From the NCBI GenBank assembly GCA_034530615.2, contig JAVRCV020000025.1, positions 161,453 through 225,452 on the forward strand: a stretch of DNA of 64,000 bases. The letters are read 5' to 3'. This stretch comes from Aulosira sp. ZfuVER01 (GTDB taxonomy: Bacteria; Cyanobacteriota; Cyanobacteriia; Cyanobacteriales; Nostocaceae). Both the position numbers and the translations under genes were made by a program. Shown here piece by piece: positions 1-48,768 of this stretch; position 1 is the first letter of the stretch; every line of letters begins with the position of its first letter. The notes beneath the pieces are model-generated. The model saw only the letters and a list, made by a program, of their open reading frames with translations. It made no database searches and was not told the origin of the DNA.

Positions 1-355
1 AGGCTTCTTGCAACAAATCGGGATTCATGTTCCAAGAAGTGCGATCGCTATCGATAAAGACTGGTTTTGCACCCAAATAAGTAATCGGATTAGCGCTAGC
101 AGCAAACGTCAAGGTCGAACAAAAAACATCATCCCCATAGCCAACACCAACTAATTGCAAAGCTAAATGCAGTGCTGCGGTTCCAGAACTGACGGCGGCT
201 GCATGGCCTGCACCGACTACTTGACAAAATTCTTGTTCAAAAGCATCTACATGAGGGCCTACAGGGGCGATCCAGTTAGTTTCAAAGGCTTGTTTGACGA
301 ATTCTAGTTCGCGATCGCCCATGTGGGGAGTTGAAAGAAGAATTTGTTTAGTCAC
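1..355 (-). CDS. DegT/DnrJ/EryC1/StrS PLP-dependent sugar aminotransferase (PglE/EpsN-like), 5' part only; runs off the window
   Basis: Manual translation from GTG at 355: MTKQILLSTPHMGDRELEFVKQAFETNWIAPVGPHVDAFEQEF...AAVSSGTAALHLAL...TLTFAASANPI. Absent from the ORF track because truncated. Confidence 0.9.
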   Translation of the reverse strand, partial: MTKQILLSTPHMGDRELEFVKQAFETNWIAPVGPHVDAFEQEFCQVVGAGHAAAVSSGTAALHLALQLVGVGYGDDVFCSTLTFAASANPITYLGAKPVFIDSDRTSWNMNPDLLQEA

Positions 356-430: not shown

Positions 431-1051
431 CTAAGAAACTTCTCTAATCACTCGGGCAGGCACTCCTGCGACGATGGTTTTGGGTGGAACATCTTTCCTG
501 GCTATTGCCCCCGCACCAACAGTAGACCAAGCTCCAACGCGAACACCAGGAAACACAACGCTACCCAGTGCCAGAAATGCACCCTCTTCAGCAGCTGCAC
601 CCCCTGCTAGATGGGACACAGCTATATGTACATAATCTCCGACAAAGCAGTCATGATCGACGCTTGCCTTAGTATTAAGAATTACATGAGAACCAATTTG
701 CGCATAAGGCTGGACTATTGCACCAGCACAAACAACTGTACCTACACCTAATGAAACTTCCGGGTGAACCCAAGCAAACGGATGAACCACGGTCATCCAC
801 TCAAAATCGAGCTTTTCTGCTAGATGCTTGCGTACTGCGTTAGATCCTATGCCCAGGATTGCATGAGAGCAGCTTTGAGAGGTCAACTCACTTACTGCTC
901 CAATAACGGGGATGTTAAAAATCTGGCTACCCCACGTTGTTGGGTTATCGTCATAAAAACCTACTACCTTGTGTCCCGCAGCAATCAGCGTACTTGCTAC
1001 AACTTTGGCATGACCTCCCGCTCCAATTACCCCTATTCTTGAGTTACTCAT
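431..1051 (-). CDS. Sugar N/O-acetyltransferase, PglD/NeuD/EpsM family
   Basis: IGAGGHAKVV N-terminus, hexapeptide repeats, VDHDC, GVPAR C-terminus. Likely start is the MSNS ATG at 1051. Confidence 0.88.
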   Translation of the reverse strand: MSNSRIGVIGAGGHAKVVASTLIAAGHKVVGFYDDNPTTWGSQIFNIPVIGAVSELTSQSCSHAILGIGSNAVRKHLAEKLDFEWMTVVHPFAWVHPEVSLGVGTVVCAGAIVQPYAQIGSHVILNTKASVDHDCFVGDYVHIAVSHLAGGAAAEEGAFLALGSVVFPGVRVGAWSTVGAGAIARKDVPPKTIVAGVPARVIREVS

Positions 1052-1742
1052 ATACTTTTTTCTTTTTGCTCCTAGTTGCTGCATTACTTGAGAACAAATT
1101 TTCTTATAGCGGCGATTACGATCTTCGCTCTTACTTTAGATAGATATTTACCAGAATTTTGTAGTTTTGATATTTCTCTATTCAATAAAATTGAATGAGT
1201 TTTCTCATTTTCTCTTCATCATATTGATCTGAAGGCTGAACTACAGCCATACTAGATTCTCTGCAATTGCCAGGGGTTCCCCAAATAGTGTTACTTCTTC
1301 AATTTCAGGCAGATGTCTCGATCGAGACGATGCTTAAGATTATTTATTGCAGAAAACCTACTATATAAGCTGCATTAGCTGCCAGCGTACCGATGATTTA
1401 TTGGAGTTTAGATTCTGTTTTGCAGTTTTTTCAATAATTATAAATTGATAGGGGATATTATGAAAATTCTTAAAGAATCATATATGTCCCCTATCAAATT
1501 TATCATAGTGCTGTTCAGAATCATTAAAAAAAACTTACTGATGACTCATTTACTATTAAAAATTAGACTCCTTCAATCATTACCATTGATGATACACACA
1601 TGTAATTTTTTACTCTCTAGAGTAGCATTTTATGGACTATGGCTGCTAAGAGTGAAATTTTATGGTTAGTATTTGGTTACTAATAGCCTCAGCAGCCGTG
1701 GCAACAAAGCTCTTGTGCGTATTTGAGCTATATGCCTTGGTC

Positions 1743-4700
1743 TTAAATGGCAAGATGCGTTTGTCTTGGTATCAGCTCTAATAGATTATTAGGAGCAGCT
1801 TGCTCAATTTGAAACTTCTCAATCTCCTGGGCAATTCCCGGTACGGTGGGAGATCGGAACAAGCTAATCAAGGGTAAGTTGACATTAAACGCCGATCGCA
1901 ATTCCGCAATTAATGTGACTGCAACTAGGGAATTGCCCCCCAAATCAAAGAAGTTGTCTGTAGTTCTCACTTCCGAGACTTGAAGCACTTTCTGCCAGAT
2001 TTCAATTAGGGTTTGCTCAATTTGGTTTTGAGGTGTTGTTGTCTTCAAAGCCTCGTCATCCTGGCGTACCATGATGGGAGCAGGCAATGCCTTGCGGTCA
2101 ACTTTATTGTTGGGGGTAAGTGGAAATGCTTCCAAGAAGACGAAGTTAGAGGGCACCATATACTCCGGCAATTGGGAGAGTAAATATTCTCGCAAGTTGG
2201 CATTGGCGGTTTGATTCCCTGGTTGTGGGAGTAGATAGGCGACAAGGCGCTTGTCTCCAGGCACATCTTCACGAACCACAATCACGGCTTCCCGGACTGC
2301 CTCGTGTCGGCTTAAAATCGTCTCAATTTCTCCCAGTTCAATCCGATAACCCCGCACTTTTACCTGAAAGTCCATGCGTCCCAGAAACTCCACATTGCCA
2401 TCCATGCGGTAAAGAGCCAAGTCTCCAGTACGGTAAAGGCGTTCTTGGGGATTCGTGCTGAAGGGGCTGGGGATAAACCTCTCCTGGGTTAACTCCGGTC
2501 TGTTGAGATAGCCGCGAGTCACTCCTTTACCACCGATGAGTAGTTCACCTGCTACCCCAATGGGAACAGGTTGCTGGTTCTTATCCAGGATATATAATTC
2601 GGTGTTGGCGATCGCTTTCCCAATGGGAACCACCCCATTCACTTCGGCCAGGGTATGGGTTGCAGACCAGATGGTGGTTTCTGTGGGGCCGTACATATTA
2701 TGAACTTGCCCGGGAATAATCTGTTGGAGTTGGTTGGCTAGGGCTTCGGTAAAGGCTTCACCGCCAACCATCATGGTATGGATCTGTCCGATTGCCTCTC
2801 TCGTCGTGCTATCGGCAATCAGCATACTAGCCATTGATGGGGTGCATTGCAGATGAGTAACTTGATGCCGCTTGATGAGTGCAGCTACAGAGTTATCTTG
2901 TGTCTGTGCTTGATTTGCGATTTGGCCATTGGCTTGTGCTTTCAACTGATTCAGCAGTGGCAATTGCGCTAATACTTTTTCTGTCTCCACGCCATAATCA
3001 ATTAGACAGGCAATTTCATCGACATCAATGCCTTTGATGCGATCGACCATCTGCAAACAGGTTTCAACTGTGCCAAACAAACCGCTGGTTTCAAAGTAGC
3101 GTTCAAAGGAGAAGTCCAACACCTCATCCATATCTTGCTCAGACAGATGAGATACGGAAAATTGACCGTTGTTGTTGGTAGTCTTCTGCTTGAAGGTAGG
3201 GAATGACCAAGCTGCTTTTTTAATCAGATCGAGGGAACTGCCCAGGTAATGCCGCATCGGCTGACGGACAATCTCTTTGACTGTATCATTATTTTCCCCG
3301 ACGAAAGTGTGCAGCATCAGGCTGACAGTTCCCTTGCCGGGATGACCATTTTCTGTCCATGCTTGCCGATAAATGGCAATTTTGGCGGCTAACTCCTCAA
3401 GACTTTGTCCTAGCAGGTGGGTCAAAATATGATAGCCTTTGGCTCCTGCCATTTGGAATGTTTCCGGATTGCCCGCCGCTGTCACCCAAACTGGGAGTTC
3501 GGGTTGAATGGGACGAGGAAGTGTCTGCACTGCCACAATTTCTCCCTTACCGTTGGGATAGTTGACAGTTTCCCCACGCCAGAGTGCCCTGACCTCCTCA
3601 ATTTGCTTGAACATGATGTCTTTCCGGTTCCCAAAGGTTTCCGGGCGCAGCACAAAGTCATTGGGTTGCCAACCAGCAGCGAAGGAGATACCAACTCGAC
3701 CGCCGGAGAAGTTGTCTACTACAGACCAATCTTCGGCAATGCGTACTGAGCTATGTAATGGAGAAACACAACTACCAGCGCGCAGCTGAATCTGGTTGGT
3801 GACTGTGGCGATCGCCGCGTTGGTTAGGGCTGGGTTTGGGAATAAGCCACCAAAGGCATGGAAGTGGCGTTCGGGAGTCCAGATGGCTTTAAATCCATTG
3901 GTATCAGCAAACTTGCTACCTTCAAATAACAGACGATACTTTGCGGCGGCATCTTCTCCTTGTTCGTGGCTGGAGAAGTAAAACAAACTAAAATCTACAG
4001 TTTTTGATTCATTTTGCAGCTTTAGCGTTGGCGAAGTAGAGCGAGCGCGTTCTTCCTTGGCATTATAGATGACAACCTTAAATCCTCGTGCCAGAGTCCA
4101 GAAGAGTTCCAGTACGGAAATATCGAAGGATAAACTGGTGACAGCCAACCATACTCCTGGTGGGTCGTGGGCAATTACACTATCCATCCCGGTAAAGAAA
4201 TTGACCACATTGCCATGCTCTACCATTACCCCCTTAGGCTTGCCAGTCGAGCCGGAAGTGTAGATGATGTAGCTCAAATTCTCAGGTTTGACCCCACTCT
4301 TGGGATTGGTGGTTGGTTGTTGGGCAATTTCTCCCCACATTGTATCTATGGGAATGATGCGGGCATCATGTTCAACAACTAAATTGGGAATCAACTTCTG
4401 CTGCGTCACAATGACTGGAGTTTGAGAATCTTGCAGCATGAAGGCCAGCCGATCTTGGGGAAAATCAGGATCGAGGGGCAGATATGCTCCGCCTGCTTTG
4501 TGGATTGCCAGTAAAGCGACCATCATTTGGTGCGATCGCTCTATGTGCAGACCTACCAGGACATCGGGGCCAACTCCACACAGCCGCAGATAGTGGGCTA
4601 GTTGATTGGCTTGTGCATTCAATTCGCGGTAGGTGAGTTGGCGATCGGCAAAAGCAATAGCGATCGCGTCCGGCGTACGGGCTACTTGCTGCTCAAATAG

Positions 4701-6416
4701 CTCATGAATACAGAGCTCGCTAGGGAAGGGTTGTGCTGTCTGGTTCCACTCCAGCAAAATTTGCTGCTGTTCGGCAACCGAAAGTAGTGGGAGTTGCTCT
4801 AAAGATTGTTCGGGATGCTCTATGCACGCAGCGATTAAACTCTGAAGTTGCTGGACAATCGCACCACTGTAAAACTCATTAATGGCCCCAGTATGTACCA
4901 ATTCTGGTAGGCTACCATCTTCGTAAGCAACGAAGGCAATGGATGCATTGAGATGCTGCCAATCCAGTTGATCGGGACTTGGCGCTAGAGCGATCGCTAC
5001 TGGCAGAAAATTATGGCGATCGTCATCTTGTAGTTCTGGATAACGTCTCAAGAGGCTATTTCTAAAGCTACCCAGCCGCGATGTCCGCTTTAGATCTGCT
5101 TCTAGGCGTTCTTGGAATTGATTGAATGTCTCCTCCGCCTTCACGTGAATGCGGATCGGCACTCGTTGGGCAAATATTTCTGGGGCAATGCTTCGCTGTG
5201 CGTTAGTTTGCAGCCCCAAGTCAAATTCTGGCTCTGTTGTTAGTCGCGCACAGTAGGTGGCAAACATCGTTAACAGAGATTTCGGCTCTACCTGTTGAGT
5301 TGGCAGCGAGATGGAATAACGTTGCAGCGAACTATCTACCATTTGACTAGATAGTTCAACTGGTAAATAAGGATGCTGAAACGGAGCTAATTTCATCAAC
5401 CGTTCTGCCCATACCGACTCATGACGACAAATGGCCGCATTCCGCTTGGTAATTGCATCTCTGGTTTCGGCATCAATTATAGGTAAAACATTCCCGACTT
5501 GCACGCCATAGTCTTCGATCAAGCTGTCTTCAGAAAGGTCTTTGCCATTTAAAGTAGTTAAATTACTCAACTGCACAGCACCATCTACGGTGGCAACATA
5601 CAGCCCATCTGCATCGAGTTTCAGCACCTGTCCGGGAATGCCGTGGGAAGTTTTGATTAAACGAGCAGATCCTACAGCAACCACTCCTCCTGGCAACCAG
5701 ATTTTGGGCAGACCTAGTTGGTTGCGAACTGGCCCAAACTCTAGTGCCCTTACCAAGTTACAAATATCTTTGCTATTGACATCAAATGATATCAGTGCGG
5801 CTGAAGGTGGGCGATGGCTGGGGCCAAAATAACTCCGTTGAGATAGATCTTGGGAGTAAGGCTGTACCAGATCCATTGTTAGTTCCGTTAACAGTTCCGC
5901 AAAAGAGCTGACGGCGGCATCGAAACAGCGAGTATTCAGATTAAATACGGTATCATCTGCTAAAATTGGCACTTCTTTCTGTTTGAAGATGCGCCCCCCA
6001 TCAATTTCGCAGGTAACTTCATGCCAGGTAACAGCATGATTAGTTTCACCATTTAGTAAAGCCCAAGAAGTTGCATACAAACCGGCATACTTTGGCAATG
6101 GTGAGTCGTGGTAGTTAATGGTTGCTTTGCGTGCCTTGGCAATAACGTCAGCTGGTACGATCCACTTGACGTTATTAATGCTGAAAAGATAATCGTACTC
6201 GCTACCCAAAAGCTGTTCTTGAAAAATAGATCGAGAAGCCGCGTGGTTGATGCCATGTTCCTCAGCCCACTTTTGTAAGGAATTATCTGTTGAATAAACT
6301 CCCAGCACTTGGCAACCTTTCTGTAACAGGATTTCCAAGCAACTTAATGGCAAAGCACCATCACCGACTACAAAACAGGAAAAGCTGGAGATTGGTATTT
6401 CTTTCACCAAGTTCAT
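1743..6416 (-). CDS. Stand-alone NRPS-like protein: formyltransferase - degenerate C-like linker - adenylation domain interrupted by a MupA/Atu3671-type luciferase-like monooxygenase - PCP
   Basis: INYHDSPLPKYAG/DGG (formyltransferase); A3 YTSGSTGKPKG, A4 FDISV; LLM insert FSLFYF...WTPERHFHAFGGLFPNP (~2940-4000); A5 NMYGPTETTIW, A7 YRTGDL, A8 GRMDFQVKVRGYRIELGEIE, A10 NNKVDRK; PCP FFDLGGNSL. Confidence 0.9.
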   Translation of the reverse strand: MNLVKEIPISSFSCFVVGDGALPLSCLEILLQKGCQVLGVYSTDNSLQKWAEEHGINHAASRSIFQEQLLGSEYDYLFSINNVKWIVPADVIAKARKATINYHDSPLPKYAGLYATSWALLNGETNHAVTWHEVTCEIDGGRIFKQKEVPILADDTVFNLNTRCFDAAVSSFAELLTELTMDLVQPYSQDLSQRSYFGPSHRPPSAALISFDVNSKDICNLVRALEFGPVRNQLGLPKIWLPGGVVAVGSARLIKTSHGIPGQVLKLDADGLYVATVDGAVQLSNLTTLNGKDLSEDSLIEDYGVQVGNVLPIIDAETRDAITKRNAAICRHESVWAERLMKLAPFQHPYLPVELSSQMVDSSLQRYSISLPTQQVEPKSLLTMFATYCARLTTEPEFDLGLQTNAQRSIAPEIFAQRVPIRIHVKAEETFNQFQERLEADLKRTSRLGSFRNSLLRRYPELQDDDRHNFLPVAIALAPSPDQLDWQHLNASIAFVAYEDGSLPELVHTGAINEFYSGAIVQQLQSLIAACIEHPEQSLEQLPLLSVAEQQQILLEWNQTAQPFPSELCIHELFEQQVARTPDAIAIAFADRQLTYRELNAQANQLAHYLRLCGVGPDVLVGLHIERSHQMMVALLAIHKAGGAYLPLDPDFPQDRLAFMLQDSQTPVIVTQQKLIPNLVVEHDARIIPIDTMWGEIAQQPTTNPKSGVKPENLSYIIYTSGSTGKPKGVMVEHGNVVNFFTGMDSVIAHDPPGVWLAVTSLSFDISVLELFWTLARGFKVVIYNAKEERARSTSPTLKLQNESKTVDFSLFYFSSHEQGEDAAAKYRLLFEGSKFADTNGFKAIWTPERHFHAFGGLFPNPALTNAAIATVTNQIQLRAGSCVSPLHSSVRIAEDWSVVDNFSGGRVGISFAAGWQPNDFVLRPETFGNRKDIMFKQIEEVRALWRGETVNYPNGKGEIVAVQTLPRPIQPELPVWVTAAGNPETFQMAGAKGYHILTHLLGQSLEELAAKIAIYRQAWTENGHPGKGTVSLMLHTFVGENNDTVKEIVRQPMRHYLGSSLDLIKKAAWSFPTFKQKTTNNNGQFSVSHLSEQDMDEVLDFSFERYFETSGLFGTVETCLQMVDRIKGIDVDEIACLIDYGVETEKVLAQLPLLNQLKAQANGQIANQAQTQDNSVAALIKRHQVTHLQCTPSMASMLIADSTTREAIGQIHTMMVGGEAFTEALANQLQQIIPGQVHNMYGPTETTIWSATHTLAEVNGVVPIGKAIANTELYILDKNQQPVPIGVAGELLIGGKGVTRGYLNRPELTQERFIPSPFSTNPQERLYRTGDLALYRMDGNVEFLGRMDFQVKVRGYRIELGEIETILSRHEAVREAVIVVREDVPGDKRLVAYLLPQPGNQTANANLREYLLSQLPEYMVPSNFVFLEAFPLTPNNKVDRKALPAPIMVRQDDEALKTTTPQNQIEQTLIEIWQKVLQVSEVRTTDNFFDLGGNSLVAVTLIAELRSAFNVNLPLISLFRSPTVPGIAQEIEKFQIEQAAPNNLLELIPRQTHLAI

Positions 6417-6543: not shown

Positions 6544-7671
6544 TTATGCCAATATGTATTGCCGAATGCGATCGGCAATTTTTTGGCTAGCACTGTCAGC
6601 TGCCACTAGTTCAATCTGTTCTGAGGTAGACACCCCTAAACCCAATTCCACTGCTTTGCGAATCTGTTCTAACTGCCAAATAGATCCTTGCGTCACTCGA
6701 TCTGTTGTTCCCAGAGAGCGCAACATTCCCAAAGCAACGACATCAATGGCTATCCGATCTGTACTTGCCAGAATCACATTTGCAGCAACCTTTTTCCCAG
6801 AATCCGGCCCTCCGTCTACAAAGGCTTCGACACCATCCATTAACACCAGAGTAGGCTGATAGACGGCATTGATTTCCGCGATCATCGGTTGCATGTGCGA
6901 GGAAGTATGGAGATCGCGCATATAGTTAAATGGATCGCCGGGAACATACTTCGCTACCATGCCTACAGTATTTTTCAGGGACAAGGTATAATGCGCTCCC
7001 CGATGAGTTTTCAGACAACAGGTATTGACAACTGCTTCTGCCTCTAGAACTGGCCGCGCAAAGGCGAAACCTTCCTTCCAGTGGGTTCCTTTTGCGGAAA
7101 AGTATTGCCACTGCTCGGTAGACAGCTCATCAAACACGATCGCCTCTAGCCCATAGCGATCTGCCAGTTGAAACACTCCTTTGAGTTCCATTGCTTGACG
7201 GGTGTTTGCCATGCCGGCGCGATCGCCCACAGTAATTTTCCCAGCGCCAGCATTTTGTAGCTCTTGCACCAAGGCTTCTAACATTTTGCTATCTGTGGCT
7301 GCCGGAGCTGGATCGGCAGTATTAAAGTTAGGCTTGAGGAAAACTTTTTTTCCCTGAATACCGCTTGGCTGCAACAAGTCAAGAGCGCGGCGGGTTCCAG
7401 ATACCCGATCTTCACTGTGGACTATGACAACTTTCCTAATGCCAGTAGGTTGTGGTAAGGGCACTACTCTCATGGCATCGGTTTGCTTTGCATGAGCAGC
7501 ATCCAGAATCGATCCAGATGTTTTCAGCGTGTGAATAACGGAGCTAGGAGAAAAACCAGATGTTTTCAGGTTGGAAAAAATATAGGGAGAAATTACTGCT
7601 CCCGCTGTCAGTCCAGCCAAGCGAAGGAAATTACGCCTTTTTTGTTTGAGATTGAGAGAGTGAATATGCAT
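6544..7671 (-). CDS. DUF362 domain protein with twin-arginine signal
   Basis: KRRNFLRLAG Tat motif; KVFLKPNF, LKTH, TLSLKN, DRIAIDVVA motifs typical of DUF362. Confidence 0.75.
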   Translation of the reverse strand: MHIHSLNLKQKRRNFLRLAGLTAGAVISPYIFSNLKTSGFSPSSVIHTLKTSGSILDAAHAKQTDAMRVVPLPQPTGIRKVVIVHSEDRVSGTRRALDLLQPSGIQGKKVFLKPNFNTADPAPAATDSKMLEALVQELQNAGAGKITVGDRAGMANTRQAMELKGVFQLADRYGLEAIVFDELSTEQWQYFSAKGTHWKEGFAFARPVLEAEAVVNTCCLKTHRGAHYTLSLKNTVGMVAKYVPGDPFNYMRDLHTSSHMQPMIAEINAVYQPTLVLMDGVEAFVDGGPDSGKKVAANVILASTDRIAIDVVALGMLRSLGTTDRVTQGSIWQLEQIRKAVELGLGVSTSEQIELVAADSASQKIADRIRQYILA

Positions 7672-7924: not shown

Positions 7925-8581
7925 TTAAATGCGTATGAAATTGCTTGGCACGTCAAACTTTGCAGTTTCTCCTGGAGAGTAGACTGCCCGATCTTCTGTA
8001 TGACTAAGAACGATCGCGCCTGCACCAATAATATTTTCTTTACCGATATTAATATAATTGCGGATAGTAGCATTCAAACCAATAAAAGTATATTCTCCTA
8101 TGGTTGCTCCACCACCAATCACGACATCAGAGGTTAGAAAGCAATGATCCTCGATCGTACAGTGATGACCGATATGATTTGCTCCTAAGAGCAGACAGTT
8201 GTTGCCAATCGAAGAGAAAGGTTGAATAATGCTATGTTCAAGAATGAAGGAGTTTTCGCCCAATTGCGTACCGTGATAAGATGCTTTAGAACTGATGTAT
8301 GAAATACAGCTATAGCCACGCTTTTTGGCATTAAAATATTTTTCTGCTCGTAATTTGTTGACATTTTTATAACTAATTGCAATGAACAATTTGTACTCAG
8401 AAGGTGGATAATACTTCTCAAGTTTCTCATAAGGGACAAGTGGTAGACCATTGAAGCTCTCTGCTTGAAGGTAAGCTTCATCAACAGTAAATCCAACTAC
8501 CTCATGTTCAGAATCATGTTTGAGATAGTAGTGAACTATTTCTGCAATCTCACTAGTTCCAAAAATAACAACTTGCGCCAT
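7925..8581 (-). CDS. Acetyltransferase, NeuD/PglD-like hexapeptide-repeat family
   Basis: VVIFGTSEIAE, NHIGHHCTIEDHCF, hexapeptide repeats; AGGAGA upstream of the MAQV ATG at 8581. Confidence 0.85.
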   Translation of the reverse strand: MAQVVIFGTSEIAEIVHYYLKHDSEHEVVGFTVDEAYLQAESFNGLPLVPYEKLEKYYPPSEYKLFIAISYKNVNKLRAEKYFNAKKRGYSCISYISSKASYHGTQLGENSFILEHSIIQPFSSIGNNCLLLGANHIGHHCTIEDHCFLTSDVVIGGGATIGEYTFIGLNATIRNYINIGKENIIGAGAIVLSHTEDRAVYSPGETAKFDVPSNFIRI

Positions 8582-8595
8582 AAGACAATTTTCTC

Positions 8596-9609
8596 CTACT
8601 GTTGATGAACGATTAAGCGATCGCACTTGGAACTTATAACGTTAGCTGCGAACATCTGCCAACTTGGCTCTGGTTCTACACCATTAGCCCAAGCTATTAA
8701 CATTGCTGGCAGATTTGCTCCAGCACAATGTGAAAATGGATATCCTCCACCAAAGCGGGGGTTCATTTCTAGAACATAGCAACCTCTAGAATTGACAATT
8801 ACATCACAGTCAAGATTGCCAATATGACTGAGTTTACGGGCTATTTCTTGACCAATATTTTGAAGTTTTTGCTCTGCGACTGTGACTGCGCGATCGGTCT
8901 CTCCCGCACGCATACCCAGTTTACGTTTCACAAAAGTTGTCACATATTCGCCATCCAAATTATTAATGATATCTAGACCGTATTCTTCACCTAATACTCG
9001 CTCTTGGATTAGAATACAATTCTCGATATCACATGCACTAACATCCGCGAGAATTGTGCGACATATTTTTTTCTGTACATACCGATATGCTAATTCTAAT
9101 TCTTCATCATCTTCGGGATATTCAATTCCAATTGAGGCGCTTCCCCAGCGAGGTTTGACTACTAAAGGAAAAGTTATTTCTCCTTGTTGAATAGCTTCTT
9201 GTACTGCTCTGACAGAAAGATAAGTTTTTGGAGAAGAAAGACCGATATTCTCTAAAAATTGAAATGTGGCAAACTTATCAAAACAGATATTGATAACTTC
9301 TGGAGAGGAAACAACTGGAATAGTGCCGATTGTCAGAAAGCGATCGCGTTGTTCTGCTAGGTACGGTAATTCTAAATCGTTCAACGGAATTAACAAGCGT
9401 ACCTGTTTTTGCTGACAGATATCCAACAAGTTATCGAAATAATCGCTGTGATGGATAGGCGGTAACAAAAAATATTCATCTGCTTCTTGTAACGCTGGTG
9501 CTTCCAGATTAGAATCAGTAGCAAACACTTGTCCTCGATTTCCTAGCGCTTCTTGGAAGAATTTCACTAGATAGTTGCGTCTTCCCGCACAAGTCAATAT
9601 GACATTCAT
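8596..9609 (-). CDS. ATP-grasp domain protein (CPS-like, EPS-associated)
   Basis: MNVILTCAGRR, DKF, VVKPRWGSAS, EMNPRFGGGYP. Confidence 0.88.
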   Translation of the reverse strand: MNVILTCAGRRNYLVKFFQEALGNRGQVFATDSNLEAPALQEADEYFLLPPIHHSDYFDNLLDICQQKQVRLLIPLNDLELPYLAEQRDRFLTIGTIPVVSSPEVINICFDKFATFQFLENIGLSSPKTYLSVRAVQEAIQQGEITFPLVVKPRWGSASIGIEYPEDDEELELAYRYVQKKICRTILADVSACDIENCILIQERVLGEEYGLDIINNLDGEYVTTFVKRKLGMRAGETDRAVTVAEQKLQNIGQEIARKLSHIGNLDCDVIVNSRGCYVLEMNPRFGGGYPFSHCAGANLPAMLIAWANGVEPEPSWQMFAANVISSKCDRLIVHQQ

Positions 9610-9624
9610 ATCAGGTTTTACCTC

Positions 9625-10863
9625 TTAGAGGACATAAGTAGAAAACACATCCTGAGAAGTTTCTCGCCGTCTGATTAGTGTGTACTCGTCCTGGATATAG
9701 TCGTAGCTAATAATGGGGGGATTGGGGCGAATAAATGGTGGTTTAAAGACGACAGTATAAGCACCCATATTCTCAAAAACTATATAATCTCCTATACCTA
9801 TTTCCCCAGGATATTCTTTGTATAAACAATCATGTTCCATACAAGTATATCCAACTATATCGATACTTCCTGAGAGTTTTTTGTGGTTGGTAATTTCTTC
9901 ATTTTTGTAAACTTTTAAAGACAGAGTTTTATCAGTTCCGGTTGGTTTGATGTTGTGAATACTACCCACTACTAGAGCAATTTGGCGCGATCGCACTGTT
10001 TTTAAACCTACAACTTTAGCTGCAAATTTCAACACATCGGAAACTACAGCTACTCCTGGCTCAATAATCAGTTCTGGGACAGAATTGGGATATCTACTTT
10101 TTAATTGTGGTGCAACTGCTGCGGCGTATTCCTGATAATTAGGAATATAAAAATCAAATTGATTTCTTAAATCGTCAGTCATCTTGCCAAAGAAACCACC
10201 ACCGATATCAAGAAATCTTGGCTGTTTATCCTGGAAATAATAATCAGTTAATTCCAAAATTTTCTGAGTACGGCGAGAGTATGATTCGGTGCTTCTTTCG
10301 GATGTAGAAATGTGGCAATGTAGTCCAGCAACAGTACAATTATTTAATTGTGTCAAGGTTTTGAATGCGCGATCGAGTTCGCCTGCTTCGACATCAAAGC
10401 CAAATCGAGATATCCGGCTGTTCCCGATATCAAAATTACACCTCAATCCTACAGCTATGTTCTGTTCTGGTAATCTTTTTGCCAAAGCTGTAACTATTTC
10501 AACTTCTTCTAAACAATCCAAGTTGACTATAGAACCAGCCAAGATGGCTTTTTCGATATCTTGCTGATGCTTCAGCGGGCCATTAAAAATAATTCTGGTT
10601 GGTGGTACGCCGATCGCGATCGCTAAATCATACTCCATTTGGGAAACAACTTCGGCATACCCTCCCATAGAATGCACTGTTTGGCATATCTTGGGAATAT
10701 AGTTAGTTTTGTAAGAATATCCCAAGTTGGTATTGGGATAAATTGAACGGAAACTCTGGAGAAACTCTTTATAGTTATGTTCAAATTGTCTGAGATCCAG
10801 AATAAAAAAAGAATCTCCGTATTCTTTTTCTAAGTGATGCAGTGTTTGCCAAGAAAGTGCCAT
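9625..10863 (-). CDS. Fold-type III PLP-dependent decarboxylase (diaminopimelate/ornithine decarboxylase-like)
   Basis: YSYKTN (PLP Lys), AEVVS, SRFG, HCH, LDIGGGF, EPG, GYTCMEHD, GAY. Confidence 0.85.
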   Translation of the reverse strand: MALSWQTLHHLEKEYGDSFFILDLRQFEHNYKEFLQSFRSIYPNTNLGYSYKTNYIPKICQTVHSMGGYAEVVSQMEYDLAIAIGVPPTRIIFNGPLKHQQDIEKAILAGSIVNLDCLEEVEIVTALAKRLPEQNIAVGLRCNFDIGNSRISRFGFDVEAGELDRAFKTLTQLNNCTVAGLHCHISTSERSTESYSRRTQKILELTDYYFQDKQPRFLDIGGGFFGKMTDDLRNQFDFYIPNYQEYAAAVAPQLKSRYPNSVPELIIEPGVAVVSDVLKFAAKVVGLKTVRSRQIALVVGSIHNIKPTGTDKTLSLKVYKNEEITNHKKLSGSIDIVGYTCMEHDCLYKEYPGEIGIGDYIVFENMGAYTVVFKPPFIRPNPPIISYDYIQDEYTLIRRRETSQDVFSTYVL

Positions 10864-10929
10864 TTTTTAACTGTTTTTTACTAAAGACAACCCATCTTCA
10901 TCAAAAGCATCCAGCGAAATCTTTGGCTT

Positions 10930-11955
10930 TTATACAGTTGCCATACTCTTGATTTCCTCCAGAGCATCAAACTTTGCTGCCATGAAGTTTGGTCGAACTT
11001 TCAGCCAATTTGGATCGGCTTCTTTACCACTTGCCCAAGCAATTAGTGCGGCGGGTAGATTAGCTCCTGCTTGATGAGAAAAAGGATAGCCTCCACCCAA
11101 ACGCGGATTCATATCTATGACAAAACAACCGTCTGCTGTTACAATTACATCGCAGTCGAGGCTACTAATATGACCAAGCTGCTGACCAATAGATGCACCT
11201 AAATCTTTTAACCGTTTATCATCAACTACGATCGCAGCATCTGTACTACCAGCTAGCATAGAAAGCTTACGTTTAGCAAAAGTAGTTATATAAGAACCTG
11301 TTAAGTTATTAATGATATCAAGACTGTACTCTTGTCCATACAGCTTTTCTTGAATGAGAACGCATCTTTGAGGATCTTTTGCACTTACGTCTGCCAAGGA
11401 TGTGCCAAAAATAAGCTTTTTAGCAAACTGATAGGCCATCTCCATTTCCTCATCGTCCTGAACGGAGAAAATACCAACTGAAGCACTTCCCCACCGAGGT
11501 TTAATAACTAAAGGGAATTTAATCTCTCCTTGGCTAAGTGCTTGCCGTGCGTCTGACAATGAAATATAGGTTTTTGGGACTGAAATACCCCAGTTTGTTA
11601 ATAATTCAAAGGTTGCCCACTTGTCAAAGCAAGTATCGATTACTTCTGGAGATGAAATGACTGGAAAAGTCCCAACTTCGAGAAAGCGATCGCGCTGTCT
11701 TGCCAACAAGGGAAGTTCGAGATCGAGCAAAGGAATTAACAGACGTACCTGATGTTGCTTACATATATTGACAATTATGTCAAAATAATCGCTATGTTTA
11801 ACAGACGGTACAACAAAACCCTTGTCAGCTTTTTGTAGTGCTGCTGCATTGGGATTAGCATCACAAGCCAGCACATATCCATTTTTAGCAAGTGCATCTT
11901 TGAAAAAGTTAATTAAGTCAATCCGACGACCGGCACAGGTAATTACGATATTCAT
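10930..11955 (-). CDS. ATP-grasp domain protein, paralogue of 8596-9609
   Basis: MNIVITCAGRR, VIKPRWGSAS, DMNPRLGGGYP; collinear with the other copy. Confidence 0.88.
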   Translation of the reverse strand: MNIVITCAGRRIDLINFFKDALAKNGYVLACDANPNAAALQKADKGFVVPSVKHSDYFDIIVNICKQHQVRLLIPLLDLELPLLARQRDRFLEVGTFPVISSPEVIDTCFDKWATFELLTNWGISVPKTYISLSDARQALSQGEIKFPLVIKPRWGSASVGIFSVQDDEEMEMAYQFAKKLIFGTSLADVSAKDPQRCVLIQEKLYGQEYSLDIINNLTGSYITTFAKRKLSMLAGSTDAAIVVDDKRLKDLGASIGQQLGHISSLDCDVIVTADGCFVIDMNPRLGGGYPFSHQAGANLPAALIAWASGKEADPNWLKVRPNFMAAKFDALEEIKSMATV

Positions 11956-12193: not shown

Positions 12194-12862
12194 CTAATTG
12201 CCCAGAAACTCTTCCATAGTGTCATGATTAGCTTGGCTAATCCCTTCTTTTTTAACTACTTTCCATGCCGTCAGGAAAAGTATTTTCAGGTCAAGCCACC
12301 AACTCCAATTATCGACATACCAAACATCTAGTTTAAATTTTTCTGGCCAAGAAATAGAATTGCGACCGTTAACTTGTGCCCAACCAGTAATCCCCGGCTT
12401 GACTTCATGACGGCGTGCTTGTTCAGGAGTGTAGCGCTCCAGATACCTGACCATTAAAGGACGCGGGCCAACGAAACTCATATCACCCTTGAGAACATTC
12501 CACAGTTGGGGAAGTTCATCCAAACTCGTTTTGCGCAGAAATTTACCGAAAGATGTTAGGCGTTTTGCATCAGGCAGAAGATTACCCTTGGCATCGCGCT
12601 CATCGGTCATAGTGCGAAACTTATAGAATTTGAAAATACGTCCGTTTTTACCAGGACGGGGTTGGGCGAAAATCACTGGACTACCCATACGGTAATAAAT
12701 AGCGATCGCCACAAGCAACAGTACAGGAAAACATAAAATTAAAGCGATCGCAGCTATGAACCTATCTAATATAGATTTGATTAATCTGCTTTGTTTGTTA
12801 GGGCAATTGCCATAAAATTTTTGAGTTTTCATAGATGTATCCACAGATTGAAGATTTGTCAT
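12194..12862 (-). CDS. Initiating phosphoglycosyl transferase (PglC/EpsL-like)
   Basis: [42 protein letters not shown]. Start codon uncertain (12832-12877). Confidence 0.92.
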
Positions 12863-12949
12863 AACGCACGAGTCCAAAAAATTTCACAAAAACCACTATT
12901 TTTACTGCCTTGTATCTTTTGCGTAGCTGTTGTCTGAGCCAAGTCATAA

Positions 12950-17303: not shown

Positions 17304-18932
17304 TTATTTCCGCGAAAGCCTTTCTATCTCTTCGCCCAATTGCCTTCGGACAGATTCCAAGACGTTTGGATCGCGTGTCCAATTCTTCCAATCACGACCG
17401 ACTTTTTGAGTTACTCCGAGTACCCATTTCTGGCGGCCAAGTTTTTTAAGTATCTCGATATATTCGTAATCTTCTACCCCTTCCCTCACCCACTTGAGTC
17501 GCATGGAAGGTACAACGCCTTTGACACCTACCTGTTTGCCAGGATAGACTAACATTCCTTCACCAGGATAATAGTCATCCTTGTCAGAATGAGTTTGAAC
17601 ATCTTTCCAGGGTTGTTTTGTCCACAAATCAACTTGCCAGTATAAAACTCCTGTTAACCCAAGACTTTGATTAATAAAGCCGTGAGGAATTCTATAATTT
17701 ATGGGTTGAAAATCTATTTGCCATTTAGGAGAGTAACCCTCTTGTACCAAAGCGTTGTAAAACCAGACTTTATCTCCTTTTTGTAAAACCTCAGATATTC
17801 GCTTGGGAGCCGCATTGTACATCGCTGGCAATACTACCCAGATGTCTACAGCAGAACGTCCAGTACCAGAACCATCATCATACAGAGCAGGTTTTGGGGC
17901 CATTGCTATAACAGTTGAAATTCCTGCTTTGTGAAAATTTCGTGCCCACTGCTTGACTGGTTCAATCAGATTTGAGCATTTATCAATCTCATCGGCATAC
18001 CTAGCGAACAGCAACAGATCTGATTGATGTATGCTGGCAGATTTGCGGATCTCATCTACAGAAGGAGGTGGCTTCATTGCGCACTGCTTGAGATCGGCTC
18101 CACTCCAGAAAGGAAGACGCAGGGAGCGTAATCCCCATTTATCAATCAGCTCGCGCTGATCTTGTGGATCTACCCTTGAAGGCATGATTTTGTGTTTTAG
18201 CAGTTCCACCATAGCGCTCTTAGTTTTTTCTTCCCAGAAAGCAAAGGAAGAATTGAGTGATGGCTTAAGAGGTAACTGAAAATTCCAAACCTGCAACAGA
18301 ATTTTGCCTGTCGTCACTCCTCGATTGCTGCTAATCGTGAAAGTACCCTGATATTTACCAGGGCTAGCATTGCGGGGTACAAACACATCTACCCAAATTG
18401 GTTGGTTATTCCCAGCTTTCAGGTTGAATGGAACTGCGTCTAACTCAAAACCTTTGAGATTGGCTTGAGTTTCAGGATTAACAAATGGAATTAGTCCATC
18501 AGCATACCATCCCGAACCCAAAGGTTGGTTGTTACTGCCTCTCTGCTTAGGACTCGACTGACTAACGTAAACGTAATGTTCTCGGTAGAGAGTAATGTTG
18601 TTCTTGGCAATTATTTGATTGTTGGGGCCAGACAAATCTGAGACTGAAACATTCACATTTGTGAGATCGCTATTTGATGCTCGAATACCAATCTGAAATG
18701 GTTCGTATTCACCTCGAGCTGCATAAAGCTGAATCTCGGTTGAACTCCCTGGCCGCTCGTCTTTTCCTATCCTTTGTAGACCTGAAGTCACCCAGACTAT
18801 AGGAGTTGTTGAAGAGTTTGCTAATAGCTTTACACTTGAACAAGCATATAAAGCCAATACTGTTCCTAGTAGGCAGATGATAATTTTATATTTGCTAATT
18901 GCTCTTGTATTTATTTTAAAAATAAGAGACAT
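17304..18932 (-). CDS. DUF4091 / GH123-like exported glycoside hydrolase, possible lipoprotein
   Basis: Hydrophobic N-terminus with ALYAC; ARGEYEPFQI, PIWVDVFVP, YADE, GEGMLVYPG, SMRLKWVREGVEDYEY. Confidence 0.75.
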   Translation of the reverse strand: MSLIFKINTRAISKYKIIICLLGTVLALYACSSVKLLANSSTTPIVWVTSGLQRIGKDERPGSSTEIQLYAARGEYEPFQIGIRASNSDLTNVNVSVSDLSGPNNQIIAKNNITLYREHYVYVSQSSPKQRGSNNQPLGSGWYADGLIPFVNPETQANLKGFELDAVPFNLKAGNNQPIWVDVFVPRNASPGKYQGTFTISSNRGVTTGKILLQVWNFQLPLKPSLNSSFAFWEEKTKSAMVELLKHKIMPSRVDPQDQRELIDKWGLRSLRLPFWSGADLKQCAMKPPPSVDEIRKSASIHQSDLLLFARYADEIDKCSNLIEPVKQWARNFHKAGISTVIAMAPKPALYDDGSGTGRSAVDIWVVLPAMYNAAPKRISEVLQKGDKVWFYNALVQEGYSPKWQIDFQPINYRIPHGFINQSLGLTGVLYWQVDLWTKQPWKDVQTHSDKDDYYPGEGMLVYPGKQVGVKGVVPSMRLKWVREGVEDYEYIEILKKLGRQKWVLGVTQKVGRDWKNWTRDPNVLESVRRQLGEEIERLSRK

Positions 18933-21036: not shown

Positions 21037-22779
21037 TTATTTTGTAGGGTTTAAATTCAGTTTACTCATTTCTAATTGCATAGCATCTTCTACAAGAATT
21101 TGATTCATTTCACAAATGATTAAGGCACGCAATGCTAATCTATTGATATTTATGGGAAGAGATTTCGCTGGAAATAAGGTTTTAATATAACATTTGAGTT
21201 CCTCTGGCATCATCATTCTAATTTTGGACTTCCAGCTATTTTTGGCAGGTTTACTATTGGATACTTGCAGATTCTCGAAAATGTAGTCTATAAATTCAGA
21301 AGTTAAAATTTTTCTAGCAGAATCTGTCTTTAATTTCCTTGATAAGAAATTTACATATTCTTGAGTTGCTAATAAATCTTCTAACTTTTGCGTTGACATT
21401 TGTTGGGCAAATGGTATTCCTTTAGGGCTTAGGGAAATAATAATACTTTTAAACAGTTTTTTCTGTATGCGTAAATAACTAGGCATCTGTCTCACTTGTT
21501 CAATAATTTCCCTTGAAAGTAAAGGATTAATTATTTCAACATAAGAACACTTTAAATCAGTTAATGCTGCCAATATATAAGGAATACGAAATTCATGATA
21601 AAGTCGGTCTCGCCAATCCGCAAAAGACTCTCTATTTTTTCTGAGTAACCTTTCTGGGAAAATCTGCGATTCAAATCCAAATTTGGCAATGATATTGTAG
21701 TTATAGTAGTCTGATAATAAGTTATTATTCATAACTCTTCTTACATCTAAAGATGTAAAAGCTGACAATATAGGAAACCCAAACGCTTCATCTCCTCTAA
21801 TAATTCCTAATACTCCTTGTTCAAATAATTCTTTCCAGACTTTAAAGCCATCCATATAGCCTGAAATATGGTCTATTCTTCCTTCACCAGCAACCAAAAA
21901 TCTCTGGAAAATGTTTTCCCATGATTCAGATGATGAATCTAATTCAAAGTATTTATTTTCGACACCAATATGTGTTGCTAATTTATTAGCCACATAAGCA
22001 TCACTATTTGGCTCGGACAAAGAAGATTTCAAGCCCCATGTTACAGTTTTCAGTCCAGTTCGATTTTTTAACAGTAAAAGAATCGCTCTACTATCGAAAC
22101 CACCAGAAAGGGGTAAAATCCAATTTGAATAATCAAAGTCATATTTGGTAAATGTATTTTCCAAACTATTCAATAACTGCTTTTTATGTTGTTTTTTAGA
22201 TAAGTTTTGGCTTTGGAATACTACATCTTTCTTCTTTATTTCTAACTCCCACGATGAACGATTCAGTAAAACACTAGAATCTGCTTCTACAGACTTTATC
22301 CTCGTATCCCAAGACAAACCAAAACCAAGTGAACCAGAAGACAACATCCACGAAACTGTAGTTTTGTTTGGTTGAAAACTCTTGAGGAAAAATACAATAG
22401 CGCGTTGTGATGTAGAAGCAATAAATTCTTGCTCAGTTTTCACATACCAAATTGTTCGGGAAGCCAATACATCAGTTACTAATTCAACAAAATTATCATC
22501 GCTACGAAATAATGCAAATGAGCCATCTGCAATACATGTTTTTGGCTGCCACCAATGCTCTTGTTCTGTAATAATTTGCCCTAAATAAACACTGGTATTA
22601 TAAGTACCTACAGTTTTATTTGGATTAAATATGCCGATCAAAACTCCATCTTGGCAGATTGTTTTAGGTGGATTTGGTGAAAAGTTATCTGGCATCAGTC
22701 TGTTAGATAACCTTTCAATATCTGCCTGAGTATATTTATTTTTTTTATCTCTTCGGCATACTAGTACGACTTTTGACAT
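21037..22779 (-). CDS. Divergent asparagine-synthase-related ATP-dependent amide ligase without the Ntn Cys
   Basis: LPLSGGFDSR PP-loop, RGDEAFG, DGSFA; N-terminus is MSKV rather than MCG. Confidence 0.7.
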   Translation of the reverse strand: MSKVVLVCRRDKKNKYTQADIERLSNRLMPDNFSPNPPKTICQDGVLIGIFNPNKTVGTYNTSVYLGQIITEQEHWWQPKTCIADGSFALFRSDDNFVELVTDVLASRTIWYVKTEQEFIASTSQRAIVFFLKSFQPNKTTVSWMLSSGSLGFGLSWDTRIKSVEADSSVLLNRSSWELEIKKKDVVFQSQNLSKKQHKKQLLNSLENTFTKYDFDYSNWILPLSGGFDSRAILLLLKNRTGLKTVTWGLKSSLSEPNSDAYVANKLATHIGVENKYFELDSSSESWENIFQRFLVAGEGRIDHISGYMDGFKVWKELFEQGVLGIIRGDEAFGFPILSAFTSLDVRRVMNNNLLSDYYNYNIIAKFGFESQIFPERLLRKNRESFADWRDRLYHEFRIPYILAALTDLKCSYVEIINPLLSREIIEQVRQMPSYLRIQKKLFKSIIISLSPKGIPFAQQMSTQKLEDLLATQEYVNFLSRKLKTDSARKILTSEFIDYIFENLQVSNSKPAKNSWKSKIRMMMPEELKCYIKTLFPAKSLPININRLALRALIICEMNQILVEDAMQLEMSKLNLNPTK

Positions 22780-26488: not shown

Positions 26489-26510
26489 AATTTATTCCTA
26501 ATAAAAAATA

Positions 26511-27623: not shown

Positions 27624-27750
27624 TACTTTTTCCTAGCTGTTAACACAATGTAAGCTGATAGAAGTTTGGCTGTTTTCAAAGGAGTTAAATCTTTTTCAAC
27701 TGCACAAACTGTCTGAGATTCACTGTATGTTTTACCTGCTTGATGATTAT

Positions 27751-29118: not shown

Positions 29119-29141
29119 ACTGCTTCCTTGGAAGTTAATTT

Positions 29142-29894
29142 CTACTTTCTTCTTAAGATTTTTATTAAAGATAAATATAGTTGTCCCTTCAGAGTTATAG
29201 GGCGAGCACAGTTATATCTTTTAACAACTTCTCCTCCGAACTTCTCTTTAAACTTATTAATTCCTAATTTTTGATTATCTGTATTTCCTGTATACCAACC
29301 TCCAAAATCATACTTAGAAATTCCTGCATTTTTGAATCGCAGAATATCTTGCCAGTGATGATAAAGATTTGCTCGTCCTAACATTGACTGATAAGAAGTA
29401 TCGCTATCATTTTTAAGTGATGCTGAATGCAGAAGATAAGCGCATTCTTTATTACGATAATAAGTATGCCAAATTAGAGGATTACCATCGTTTGACTTGA
29501 TCTGCGAAATGTCAATCAACCCAGAATCTGCACGACTTTTGAGTATAGTTCTATTAATCTTTTTTAGACCTTTTTGCACGGCAAATACATCATAAAAATC
29601 TGCAAATTCGTTGAGAATATTAGATTCGGGATTTTCCCAATATTCATAAATAACTCGATCTCTTTCACCTGCTCGCTTAATCTTATACTTGTCATTTTTA
29701 CCAATATTGAGCCAGATTTCATCTTGAGTTTTTTGCAGATCTATCAATCTTGTATGGCATTCTTCATAGGTAACGTTATTAATTGGATAAGTCCGTTGTT
29801 TGTATAAGAGTACATCTACATTTCCCATCTCTTGGGTTTCTGCGTCAAACCAGACTTCTCCCATTAACAATAGTTTGTTTTTGAAAATATACAT
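29142..29894 (-). CDS. GNAT / FemAB-like acyltransferase
   Basis: KYKIKRA, ANLYHHW, YDFGG...GINKFKEKFGG C-terminal Fem-like signature. Confidence 0.65.
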   Translation of the reverse strand: MYIFKNKLLLMGEVWFDAETQEMGNVDVLLYKQRTYPINNVTYEECHTRLIDLQKTQDEIWLNIGKNDKYKIKRAGERDRVIYEYWENPESNILNEFADFYDVFAVQKGLKKINRTILKSRADSGLIDISQIKSNDGNPLIWHTYYRNKECAYLLHSASLKNDSDTSYQSMLGRANLYHHWQDILRFKNAGISKYDFGGWYTGNTDNQKLGINKFKEKFGGEVVKRYNCARPITLKGQLYLSLIKILRRK

Positions 29895-48583: not shown

Positions 48584-48768
48584 AAAACAATAAGTACTGC
48601 AAAATTAATATTATGCGTATACAATTATGCTGAGTCTGTACCCGGCATTAAATACTATTTCACTGGGAAAAGTATAAAGGATGAAGTACTAGCTATGCAC
48701 TTCAGCCTTTATCCTCAAAAGTCAAAATTCAAAAGTCTAGAATTTTTGAACCAATGACCATTGACATA

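Follow-up and report, generated by a model that had tools for sequence, protein, structure and literature searches.

What does a single nonribosomal peptide synthetase (NRPS) module contribute to a polysaccharide gene cluster? The question is raised by the gene at 1743-6416 on the minus strand of a 64-kb stretch of contig JAVRCV020000025.1 from Aulosira sp. ZfuVER01 (the window; coordinates are positions in this whole stretch, and aa numbers are residues of the 1557-aa NRPS protein). The protein joins a formyltransferase (FT), half of a condensation (C) domain, an adenylation (A) domain interrupted by a luciferase-like monooxygenase (LLM), and a peptidyl carrier protein (PCP). Its gene is accompanied by c1, which encodes a PglD/PerB-like acyltransferase. 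We put the chances at about even that a formylated, α-hydroxylated glycine, or a glyoxylyl group derived from it, goes from the PCP to UDP-bacillosamine via c1.

Domain organization of the NRPS

The open reading frame (ORF) was intact, with no internal stops, and the host genome carried one copy of the NRPS. The protein and its parts are:

1743-6416, minus strand: one-module NRPS, FT-half C-A(LLM)-PCP, 1557 aa (ORF and domain profiles)
5481-6392, minus strand: formyltransferase of the ArnA/Fmt type with both subdomains and N101/H103/D139 (PF00551 and PF02911)
4764-5435, minus strand: C-terminal lobe of a condensation domain, HHxxxDG missing (motif reading, hhalign, structure comparison)
4050-4697, minus strand: N-terminal half of the A domain, motifs A1-A4 (profiles, motifs, structure comparison)
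2940-3992, minus strand: LLM of the MupA/Atu3671 family, inserted between A4 and A5 (TIGR04020, 511.7 bits)
2082-2909, minus strand: C-terminal half of the A domain, motifs A5-A10 (profiles, motifs)
1824-2015, minus strand: PCP, GGNSL with Ser1496 (profile, motif)

The original prediction had placed a complete LLM between A4 and A5 at about 2940-4000, and the profile search agreed: aa 809-1159 covered positions 1-341 of the 341 in TIGR04020, scoring far above the curated cut-off of 244.45, and were flanked by A4 (FDIS, aa 764, window 4127) and A5 (NMYGPTE, aa 1240, window 2699). The closest solved structure to this LLM was that of PuwE (6KET, E 1.6e-111). In an AlphaFold2 model of aa 555-1540 (44 sequences, pLDDT 85.8, pTM 0.54, with inter-domain placement uncertain), the A core enclosed the LLM insert and matched Txo1 with Z 55.7 and an rmsd of 1.5 Å over 410 residues. 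The predicted N-terminal FT and C-terminal PCP were likewise recovered, as Formyl_trans_N and Formyl_trans_C at aa 86-299 (Pfam/NCBIfam) and as a PCP profile match at aa 1468-1531; the AMP-binding match was split in two. N101, H103, D139, and the PCP serine were unchanged in all 40 alignment rows. Protein-level counts were taken from 120 listed homologues, for which the query favoured FT-bearing proteins; among these, 60 of the 62 full-length proteins kept both NxH and DxG.

As first claimed, motif reading found no HHxxxDG condensation motif anywhere in the 1557 aa, and profiles gave no thioesterase (TE) match in the protein. To this can be added a half C domain without the motif. Residues ~328-551 corresponded to a condensation C-lobe lacking the catalytic N-lobe (hhalign probability 99.5), with template columns 189-445 covered and motif column 136 outside the alignment. 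This region was placeable by profiles and not by pairwise BLASTP, gave a weak condensation profile match below the cut-off at aa 415-483, and aligned with AB3403 residues 195-472 at Z 17.2. It is probably a scaffold.

The pocket code of the A domain, read from motif anchors with the GrsA position numbering that we take to be correct, was DILQMGMIWK, the glycine-type code obtained earlier by manual alignment. Among PDB entries, the pocket segment was closest to DhbF A1 (5U89), presumably a glycine-activating domain, which reads Q-L-G-L-I-W against Q-M-G-M-I-W here. The same code was present in 44 of the 62 LLM-bearing proteins, while 15 differed at one or two positions and 3 were unreadable. 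A genome scan using one genome per species confirmed at least 597 stretches, and among the best 80, which were analysed, the pocket was readable in 36 of 47 FT-fused loci and glycine-type in every one. The proposed glycine specificity thus gains comparative support, and the A domain very probably loads glycine onto the PCP.

The acceptor of the formyl group is less readily read from the fold. In a model of aa 9-570 (56 sequences, pLDDT 92.7), the FT matched ArnA with Z 26.8 and an rmsd of 2.5 Å over 289 residues, and Fmt with Z 26.2; since these lie within 1 Z, the fold cannot identify the acceptor. One could suppose that the FT formylates a UDP-amino sugar, as ArnA does, while A(LLM)-PCP handles glycine separately. 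The two-subdomain fold with ArnA as its top match, the alignment of the LgrA formylation domain to the first subdomain only (Z 18.2, 169 residues), and a cluster that makes a 4-amino sugar all speak for this. Besides the near-equal match to Fmt, however, there are peptide assembly lines that begin with this FT-half C-A front and have no sugar genes (L039, L064/L065, and L063), and at most of the family loci linked to a polyketide synthase (PKS) no aminotransferase was seen within 10 kb. We regard sugar formylation as quite improbable and formylation of the PCP-bound glycine as likely.

Pairing of the NRPS with the acyltransferase c1

The NRPS gene sits near the 3′ end of a ~36-kb minus-strand Wzy-type cluster. 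Its order is a PglF-type dehydratase, GINT1-like and FemAB-like genes, a flippase, GT4 glycosyltransferases, a polymerase, AsnB-like amidotransferases, and PglC, after which come ATP-grasp/LysA-like/ATP-grasp, c1, DUF362, the NRPS, PglD, PglE, and, left of the window, Wzc; the genes beyond Wzc were unrelated to the cluster. The features concerned are:

30890-32929, minus strand: PglF/CapD-type UDP-GlcNAc dehydratase (PF02719)
24127-29894, minus strand: Wzy-type polymerase, GT4 glycosyltransferases, MurJ-type flippase, and FemAB-like protein (profiles)
12194-12877, minus strand: PglC-type initiating phosphoglycosyltransferase (PF02397)
8596-11955, minus strand: accessory trio of ATP-grasp, LysA-like pyridoxal phosphate-dependent decarboxylase, and ATP-grasp, found in 6 of 12 related loci (profiles)
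7925-8581, minus strand: c1, a second PglD/PerB-like left-handed β-helix acyltransferase, 218 aa (TIGR03570, 170 bits)
6544-7671, minus strand: DUF362 protein with a twin-arginine-like N terminus, accompanying the NRPS in some lineages (Pfam, neighbourhoods)
431-1084, minus strand: canonical PglD-type acetyltransferase (profiles, motifs)
1-355, minus strand: 5′ part of a DegT/PglE-type sugar aminotransferase, which runs on left of the window and is followed by Wzc (orthologue annotation)

Twenty cyanobacterial NRPS copies were examined, 16 with c1 alongside and 4 without. In all 16 close copies c1 adjoined the NRPS gene, either directly upstream (12) or with DUF362 intervening (4); 12 of these pairs had an intact FT and 4 were reduced, lacking the LLM and part of the FT. 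The close c1 clade (at least 65% identity, the next match being 53%) occurred in exactly the 8 of 401 genomes that bear an LLM-type NRPS. When the pairing was tested as a prediction, three of three c1 copies without an LLM match stood directly upstream of a reduced NRPS. A gene table of 12 loci, in which some contigs were short, contained c1 at all 12, PglD and PglC at 9 each, PglE at 8, LysA and ATP-grasp at 6 each, FabH at 5, and DUF362 at 4. No ketosynthase (KS), TE, or phosphopantetheinyl transferase (PPTase) gene was found at any of these 12 loci. The NRPS held the same place between PglC/c1 and PglD/PglE in two genera. Genome-wide, PglD had no match in G286 or G255 (99% complete), where PglF, PglE, and PglC were present; c1 is therefore the sole such acyltransferase in the G286 cluster. 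G255 carries a second c1-like gene, 52% identical, beside FabH.

The c1 protein has the layout of PglD and PerB, an N-terminal sugar-nucleotide domain followed by a β-helix, and its best PDB match was PerB. The catalytic His139 was present in 97 of 97 rows. PMC9271549 describes a second N-terminal Gly, a conserved Asn, and a C-terminal Gly-x-Pro turn as marks of class I sugar acetyltransferases, and ties the turn to coenzyme A (CoA) binding in PglD-type enzymes. The window PglD has all three marks. In c1, GxGG and the GxPA turn were found in 0 of 97 rows each, and the Asn column, seven residues before the His, holds W, L, F, or A. The same marks were also missing in distant c1 relatives. An LpxA-like HxxH was considered as a sign of carrier use and dropped, as only 46 of 97 rows have it.

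Natural deletion variants further connect the two genes. Among the 120 listed homologues, 22 (870-1022 aa) lacked the LLM and ~aa 140-300 of the FT and retained the glycine-type pocket; 7 of these 22 kept the DxG motif, against 60 of 62 full-length proteins. P0010 lacked the LLM alone, and an LLM without an FT was seen in none of the 120, a set whose query favoured FT-bearing proteins. All four reduced genes with readable DNA kept c1, the two genes forming a unit that has no sugar gene close by. These orphan units of c1 and a reduced glycine A-PCP (L157, L232, L233, and L234, that is, G445:C339, G689:C154, G702:C155, and G682:C135) are flanked by mnmE (observed in three) and by a conserved gene without a Pfam family; G445 and G682 additionally keep a full-length c1-NRPS pair.

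These variants bear on the view that c1 is an ordinary acetyl-CoA acetyltransferase acting on the glycine unit (N- or O-acetylation), with transfer left to another enzyme such as an ATP-grasp, the FemAB-like protein, or the N-terminal C domain of some orthologues. NCBIfam does group c1 with the NeuD/PglB/VioB acetyltransferases. An extra C domain precedes the FT in P0003, P0005, P0015, P0018, P0020-P0022, P0024, P0026, P0029, and P0036, with HHxxxDG intact in 10 of these 11. Glycine and N-acetylglycine have been found on E. coli O antigens, the latter in O121 (PMC7685785). Distant c1 relatives, moreover, go with WbqC (described below). However, N-acetylation would be redundant beside an intact FT, yet c1 is retained in 12 of 12 such pairs; in the four LLM-less reduced pairs there would be nothing to O-acetylate, and c1 is retained regardless; and none of the other transferase candidates is common to all loci. 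Because the glycine loader and the transferase stay together in the reduced pairs, we prefer transfer from the PCP over both acetylation readings, and consider acetylation by c1 unlikely.

Observations weighing against transfer by c1

Several observations count against the proposed transfer of a PCP-bound unit to the cluster's sugar. By setting, 9 of the 16 c1-NRPS pairs were with a PglC cluster, 2 with PglD only, and 5 with no sugar gene in the stretch examined, so that 7 of 16 pairs are outside PglC-containing polysaccharide clusters. The pairing counts are not independent because the copies are kin: c1 is carried by three genera, and 6 of the 8 genomes in the 401-genome sample belong to one genus. 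Distances of c1 tracked those of the A domain no better than did other cluster genes (rho 0.33-0.46), and on 28 common pairs rho was 0.33 for c1 versus 0.70 for PglE; a special co-evolution of c1 and NRPS by sequence distance is therefore unsupported. The canonical PglD shares the cluster and could consume the amino sugar, while two ATP-grasp enzymes and the FemAB-like protein offer alternative routes of sugar aminoacylation. In C. difficile, a peptidylamido sugar was lost in an ATP-grasp mutant (PMC5207246); the idea of an NRPS in that flagellin glycan locus was rejected, as the passages concerned (PMC5207246, PMC5207245) name FemAB-like, ATP-grasp, cyclodeaminase, and aminotransferase genes and no NRPS. 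The cluster showed no recognisable flavin reductase or PPTase gene; elsewhere in the genome there were nine PF03358 matches (candidate FMN reductases) and one PPTase match, on another contig.

Distant c1 relatives (34-53%) also weigh on this side: they accompany WbqC, DegT, and a propeller protein without an NRPS, so the c1 subfamily can do without a PCP. WbqC was near distant c1 in 9 of 15 and 3 of 3 cases and in 4 of the 5 plasmid loci viewed (13 found), and other distant relatives lay beside FabH, short-chain dehydrogenase/reductase (SDR), or AMP-ligase genes (5 of 15). WbqC, which we take to be a glycine transferase, was not found in any of five NRPS genomes tested, and the NRPS may replace it as glycine supplier. 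Two WbqC-c1 loci gave no blastn match against E. coli genomes, which left no basis for setting c1 against the O121 genes; an ESM Atlas query with WbqC returned WbqC clusters only. The repeated amino-sugar cassette at L184-L198 and L235-L237 consists of WbqC, a methyltransferase, a c1-like acyltransferase, a ~310-aa propeller-like protein, and a DegT aminotransferase. A transketolase-like pair beside distant c1 was rejected: the ~310-aa neighbours belong to a single family whose propeller matches (GH32/GH130) are weak, and they match the window GINT1-like gene weakly (E about 1e-3).

c1 from four FabH-cassette loci without LysA clustered together, and the c1 donor may therefore differ between lineages. 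At L047, L058, L059, L054, and L049, FabH lies between the NRPS and PglD, with SDR, AMP-ligase, and carrier-like protein genes in three. The FabH cassette is possibly a discrete PKS counterpart or a second acyl pathway. The equivalent position in the window, 1085-1742, is 660 bp with no long ORF.

Possible alternative acceptors in the wider family

Is the NRPS instead a passenger from a small-molecule pathway, yielding a diffusible product, with its polysaccharide location incidental? The cyanobacterial enzymes form one clade (support 98/96, A-domain C-half, 29 rows), yet in G566, G579, G624, and G671, of one genus, the same-clade enzyme (63-65% identical in the FT, 83-84% in the LLM) precedes a Cy-A-PCP-Ox NRPS, with C-PCP-TE nearby and no polysaccharide genes alongside. 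The third-codon-position GC content (GC3) of the window gene was 0.47, versus 0.27-0.42 for most cluster genes, which likewise speaks for a passenger. Close orthologues were patchy, occurring in 2 of 61 relatives, 8 of 401 genomes in the phylum sample, and 11 of 401 in the order sample (this genome included), and a polysaccharide gene was not seen in 26 of 47 family loci, by a reference set drawn from the neighbours of the family. On the other side, neither a domain for release nor a following module was found near the NRPS in this genome, and its position is shared between two genera. Furthermore, c1 substitutes for an NRPS partner and does not coexist with one: c1 had no match genome-wide in any of the four genomes where the Cy-A-PCP-Ox NRPS comes after the enzyme. 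An incidental location thus seems improbable, and we retain polysaccharide tailoring as the preferred reading.

The three-gene sets of these four genomes (L215-L222; G671:C93, G579:C5, G566:C1, and G624:C1) contain the starter, Cy-A-PCP-Ox, and a divergent C-PCP-TE gene; their product could be a small, glycine-derived azole. They lie beside cobalt and iron uptake genes, with DUF362 in three of four, and the G624 copy is fragmented. A similar starter and Cy-A-PCP-Ox pair at L112 has a carbamoyltransferase.

The absence of a PKS or NRPS partner was a further claim of the original prediction, which named a cognate partner just left of the window as a possible refutation. Reading of the ORF lists showed no PKS or NRPS ORF in the remainder of the window or in the adjoining 40 kb on the left, and tblastn found no KS or TE in the 20 kb left of the window and its first 34 kb; an NRPS or PKS partner may act in trans. 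The NRPS therefore stands alone in the stretch covered, but the description does not extend to the family, where a PKS gene or fragment, mostly KS-AT-KR-DH-ACP(-TE), occurred in 27 of 47 FT-fusion loci. The suggested alphaproteobacterial architecture linked to glycosyltransferases was found in the four plasmid loci viewed, all of which had PKS, PPTase, and glycosyltransferase genes.

The FT-A(LLM)-PCP enzyme is spread over many phyla. The best 80 loci comprised 47 FT-A(LLM) fusions, 20 C-A(LLM) proteins, 1 with a separate FT gene, 1 with neither, and 11 cut by contig ends. Of the 69 loci with a readable N terminus, 68 had an N-acylating domain (FT or C) upstream, as expected if the LLM works on N-acyl glycine. 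Polysaccharide genes were seen in 21 of 47 FT-type versus 3 of 20 C-type loci, and among loci of at least 15 kb in 17 of 35 versus 2 of 14 (Fisher p 0.049), a weak test in which the polysaccharide reference set came from the family's own neighbours and kin loci were not independent. The closest named homologue among the 120 listed was from Calothrix sp. NIES-2098 (83% over aa 1-560). A metagenome scan with a reduced paralogue gave seven loci and no close relatives.

Since same-clade enzymes front heterocyclising NRPSs and most loci carry a PKS, domain architecture alone is no proof of polysaccharide tailoring. Judged from sequence, the pointer to tailoring is the partner gene, not the architecture. 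The proposed transfer to an amino sugar thus gained comparative support and a candidate transferase, c1, while the architecture from which it had been argued is insufficient, as an NRPS follows the enzyme at four same-clade loci. PKS, heterocyclising NRPS, and acyltransferase appear to be alternative acceptors behind one starter.

Other arrangements were seen in the family. At L088 (5035-16288), which adjoins Wza, Wzc, and PPTase genes, FT-A(LLM)-PCP is followed by C-A(LLM)-PCP, a radical SAM gene, and a fusion of a hexapeptide-repeat with a carrier domain. A sister group (P0048, P0052, the P0058-P0077 region, and G294:C55) has FT-half C-A-PCP plus TE without the LLM, with a mostly DVEI-type code. 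Aldo-keto reductase genes stand beside the cassette at L070 (18930-19907) and L096 (13181-14110), two annotated of a cluster of four loci; these would suit an aldehyde intermediate.

Proposed reaction sequence

From their families, PglF and PglE would make UDP-4-amino-QuiNAc (UDP-bacillosamine). The A domain, according to its pocket code, would activate glycine and charge the PCP, and the FT, whose catalytic residues are present, would cap the glycyl amine from 10-formyltetrahydrofolate. By analogy with MtaG/MelG and PuwE, the inserted flavin mononucleotide (FMN)-dependent monooxygenase would hydroxylate the glycyl α-carbon, and α-hydroxylation of the PCP-bound glycine seems, like its N-formylation, a likely event. 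The resulting N-formyl-2-hydroxyglycyl group may either stay or shed formamide to leave glyoxylyl-PCP, and the data fit both. In the absence of an active C domain and a TE, we propose that c1 unloads the PCP; the gene pairing suggests that it would lift the acyl group onto the sugar's 4-amino group. We lean slightly toward this transfer to UDP-bacillosamine taking place before PglC acts; PglC would then initiate the repeat unit with the acylated sugar. The strengths given for loading, formylation, hydroxylation, and transfer are estimates and depend on one another.

A broader reading, which we hold only tentatively, is that this single NRPS module is a polysaccharide tailoring enzyme in which formylation merely renders glycine oxidisable, the unit is then cleaved to a PCP-bound glyoxylyl (aldehyde) group or retained as N-formyl-2-hydroxyglycine, and a β-helix acyltransferase that reads a PCP in place of CoA acylates bacillosamine with it. 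In this reading, different lineages couple one starter with a PKS, with a heterocyclising NRPS, or with a sugar acyltransferase. If true, an NRPS module would tailor a surface polysaccharide, a β-helix transferase would read a PCP, and a reactive aldehyde or hemiaminal group might be placed on the exopolysaccharide. The two-protein version would then also show which starter unit the entire orphan family uses. In its cyanobacterial form the system is reduced to a pair of soluble proteins and a single nucleotide sugar, and natural variants lack the LLM, or the LLM and part of the FT; the starter chemistry is therefore directly testable.

Comparison with known systems

The closest system was a Roseobacter cluster of PKS, NRPS, glycosyltransferase, and PPTase genes. 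Alphaproteobacterial homologues share FT-A(LLM)-PCP with the window protein (39-43% over aa 1-1159), which has both the architecture and the glycine-type code of that cassette. From gene content, we infer that the alphaproteobacterial loci viewed are the conserved Roseobacter cluster of PMC5014874, whose product, citing Martens et al. 2007, was described as unidentified as of 2016. Unlike the Roseobacter cassette, the window NRPS has no adjoining KS-AT-KR-DH-ACP-TE PKS, PPTase, or GT2; a PglD-like acyltransferase and the bacillosamine pathway stand in their place.

In MtaG and MelG of the myxothiazol and melithiazol pathways (C-A(MOX)-T-TE), a glycine-type A domain is split by a monooxygenase, as in the window; in MtaG, the insertion is presumably between A4 and A5. 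MtaG is the last enzyme of its line: its active C domain joins the chain to glycine, and the TE sets free a keto acid. In the window protein, by contrast, acylation would fall to a formyltransferase, the C domain is without its catalytic lobe, TE and upstream line are missing, and it is the fragment on the PCP side that would be of use. The MtaG/MelG monooxygenase has been proposed to hydroxylate the α-carbon of N-acyl glycine (PMC11411415), and a survey of LLMs backs the α-hydroxylation proposal (PMC8739492). Unlike the window LLM, that of PuwE (puwainaphycin) is free-standing between PKS and NRPS modules and acts on a fatty acyl chain, with a proposed addition of a 2-hydroxy group to the carrier-bound chain (PMC4219810).

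Formylating starters (LgrA F-A-PCP, anabaenopeptilide, and kolossin; PMC8949500) begin, like the window protein, with formyltransferase, A, and PCP, and the window FT shares their Asn/His/Asp triad followed by A and PCP. Those starters deliver to a C domain downstream and contain no embedded oxygenase, whereas for the window NRPS no downstream C or KS module was found in the window or 40 kb leftward; the LgrA F domain lacks the second subdomain and half C present here. In the same review, just three NRPS formylation domains are listed, and most nested domains fall between A8 and A9 (PMC8949500). In its domains, then, the window NRPS is most like an MtaG-type glycine hydroxylase fused to a formylating starter, yet is neither. 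A search of the open-access literature, outside which most subscription papers lie, found no paper describing FT-A(LLM)-PCP.

Among polysaccharide systems, the O-polysaccharide locus of Flavobacterium psychrophilum (WfpG, WfpD) shares PglF/PglE/PglC and a PglD homologue with the window. There, an unusual acyl group on a dedicated acyl carrier protein (ACP) is predicted to be carried over to UDP-Qui2NAc4NH2 by the PglD homologue (PMC6519341). That group is built on the ACP by fatty-acid-type enzymes, whereas PCP-bound glycine is proposed here. In butirosin biosynthesis (BtrI/J/K/O/H), the amine of the 4-amino-2-hydroxybutyrate (AHBA) precursor is protected, the carrier-bound aminoacyl group is α-hydroxylated by a flavin monooxygenase, and the product is moved to an amino sugar; that pathway includes an ATP-grasp enzyme and a LysA-fold decarboxylase, with separate proteins and a γ-glutamyl cap. 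The window resembles this logic but has a fused protein and a formyl cap. The window LysA-like decarboxylase matched FslC (E 3e-35), LysA (2e-24), and BtrK (3e-16), and a BtrK-specific identity was dropped, as the resemblance is at the family level only.

Other features of the window

Promoter and terminator scans stayed at chance level, and Rfam gave no matches. Within the polysaccharide cluster, a GH123-like gene of lipoprotein type and a degenerate asparagine-synthetase-like gene lie at 17304-18932 and 21037-22779 (minus strand). A SucD- and SucC-like pair at 34317-36758 (minus strand) scored below family cut-offs, and no GHAG, which we take to be the phosphohistidine motif of the α subunit, was seen in its SucD-like member. 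Two tandem penicillin-binding-protein-2-like genes, judged from ORF sequences alone, are at 46763-50613 (minus strand). A four-helix-bundle gene (TIGR02436) at 52060-52455 (plus strand) lies within a polyamine-type ABC transporter operon, with short tandem repeats of 7 bp at either end. Two related tandem arrays with a 42-bp period (59447-59660 and 63697-64000) flank a TPR/CHAT-type gene whose TPRs yield a 120-bp period.

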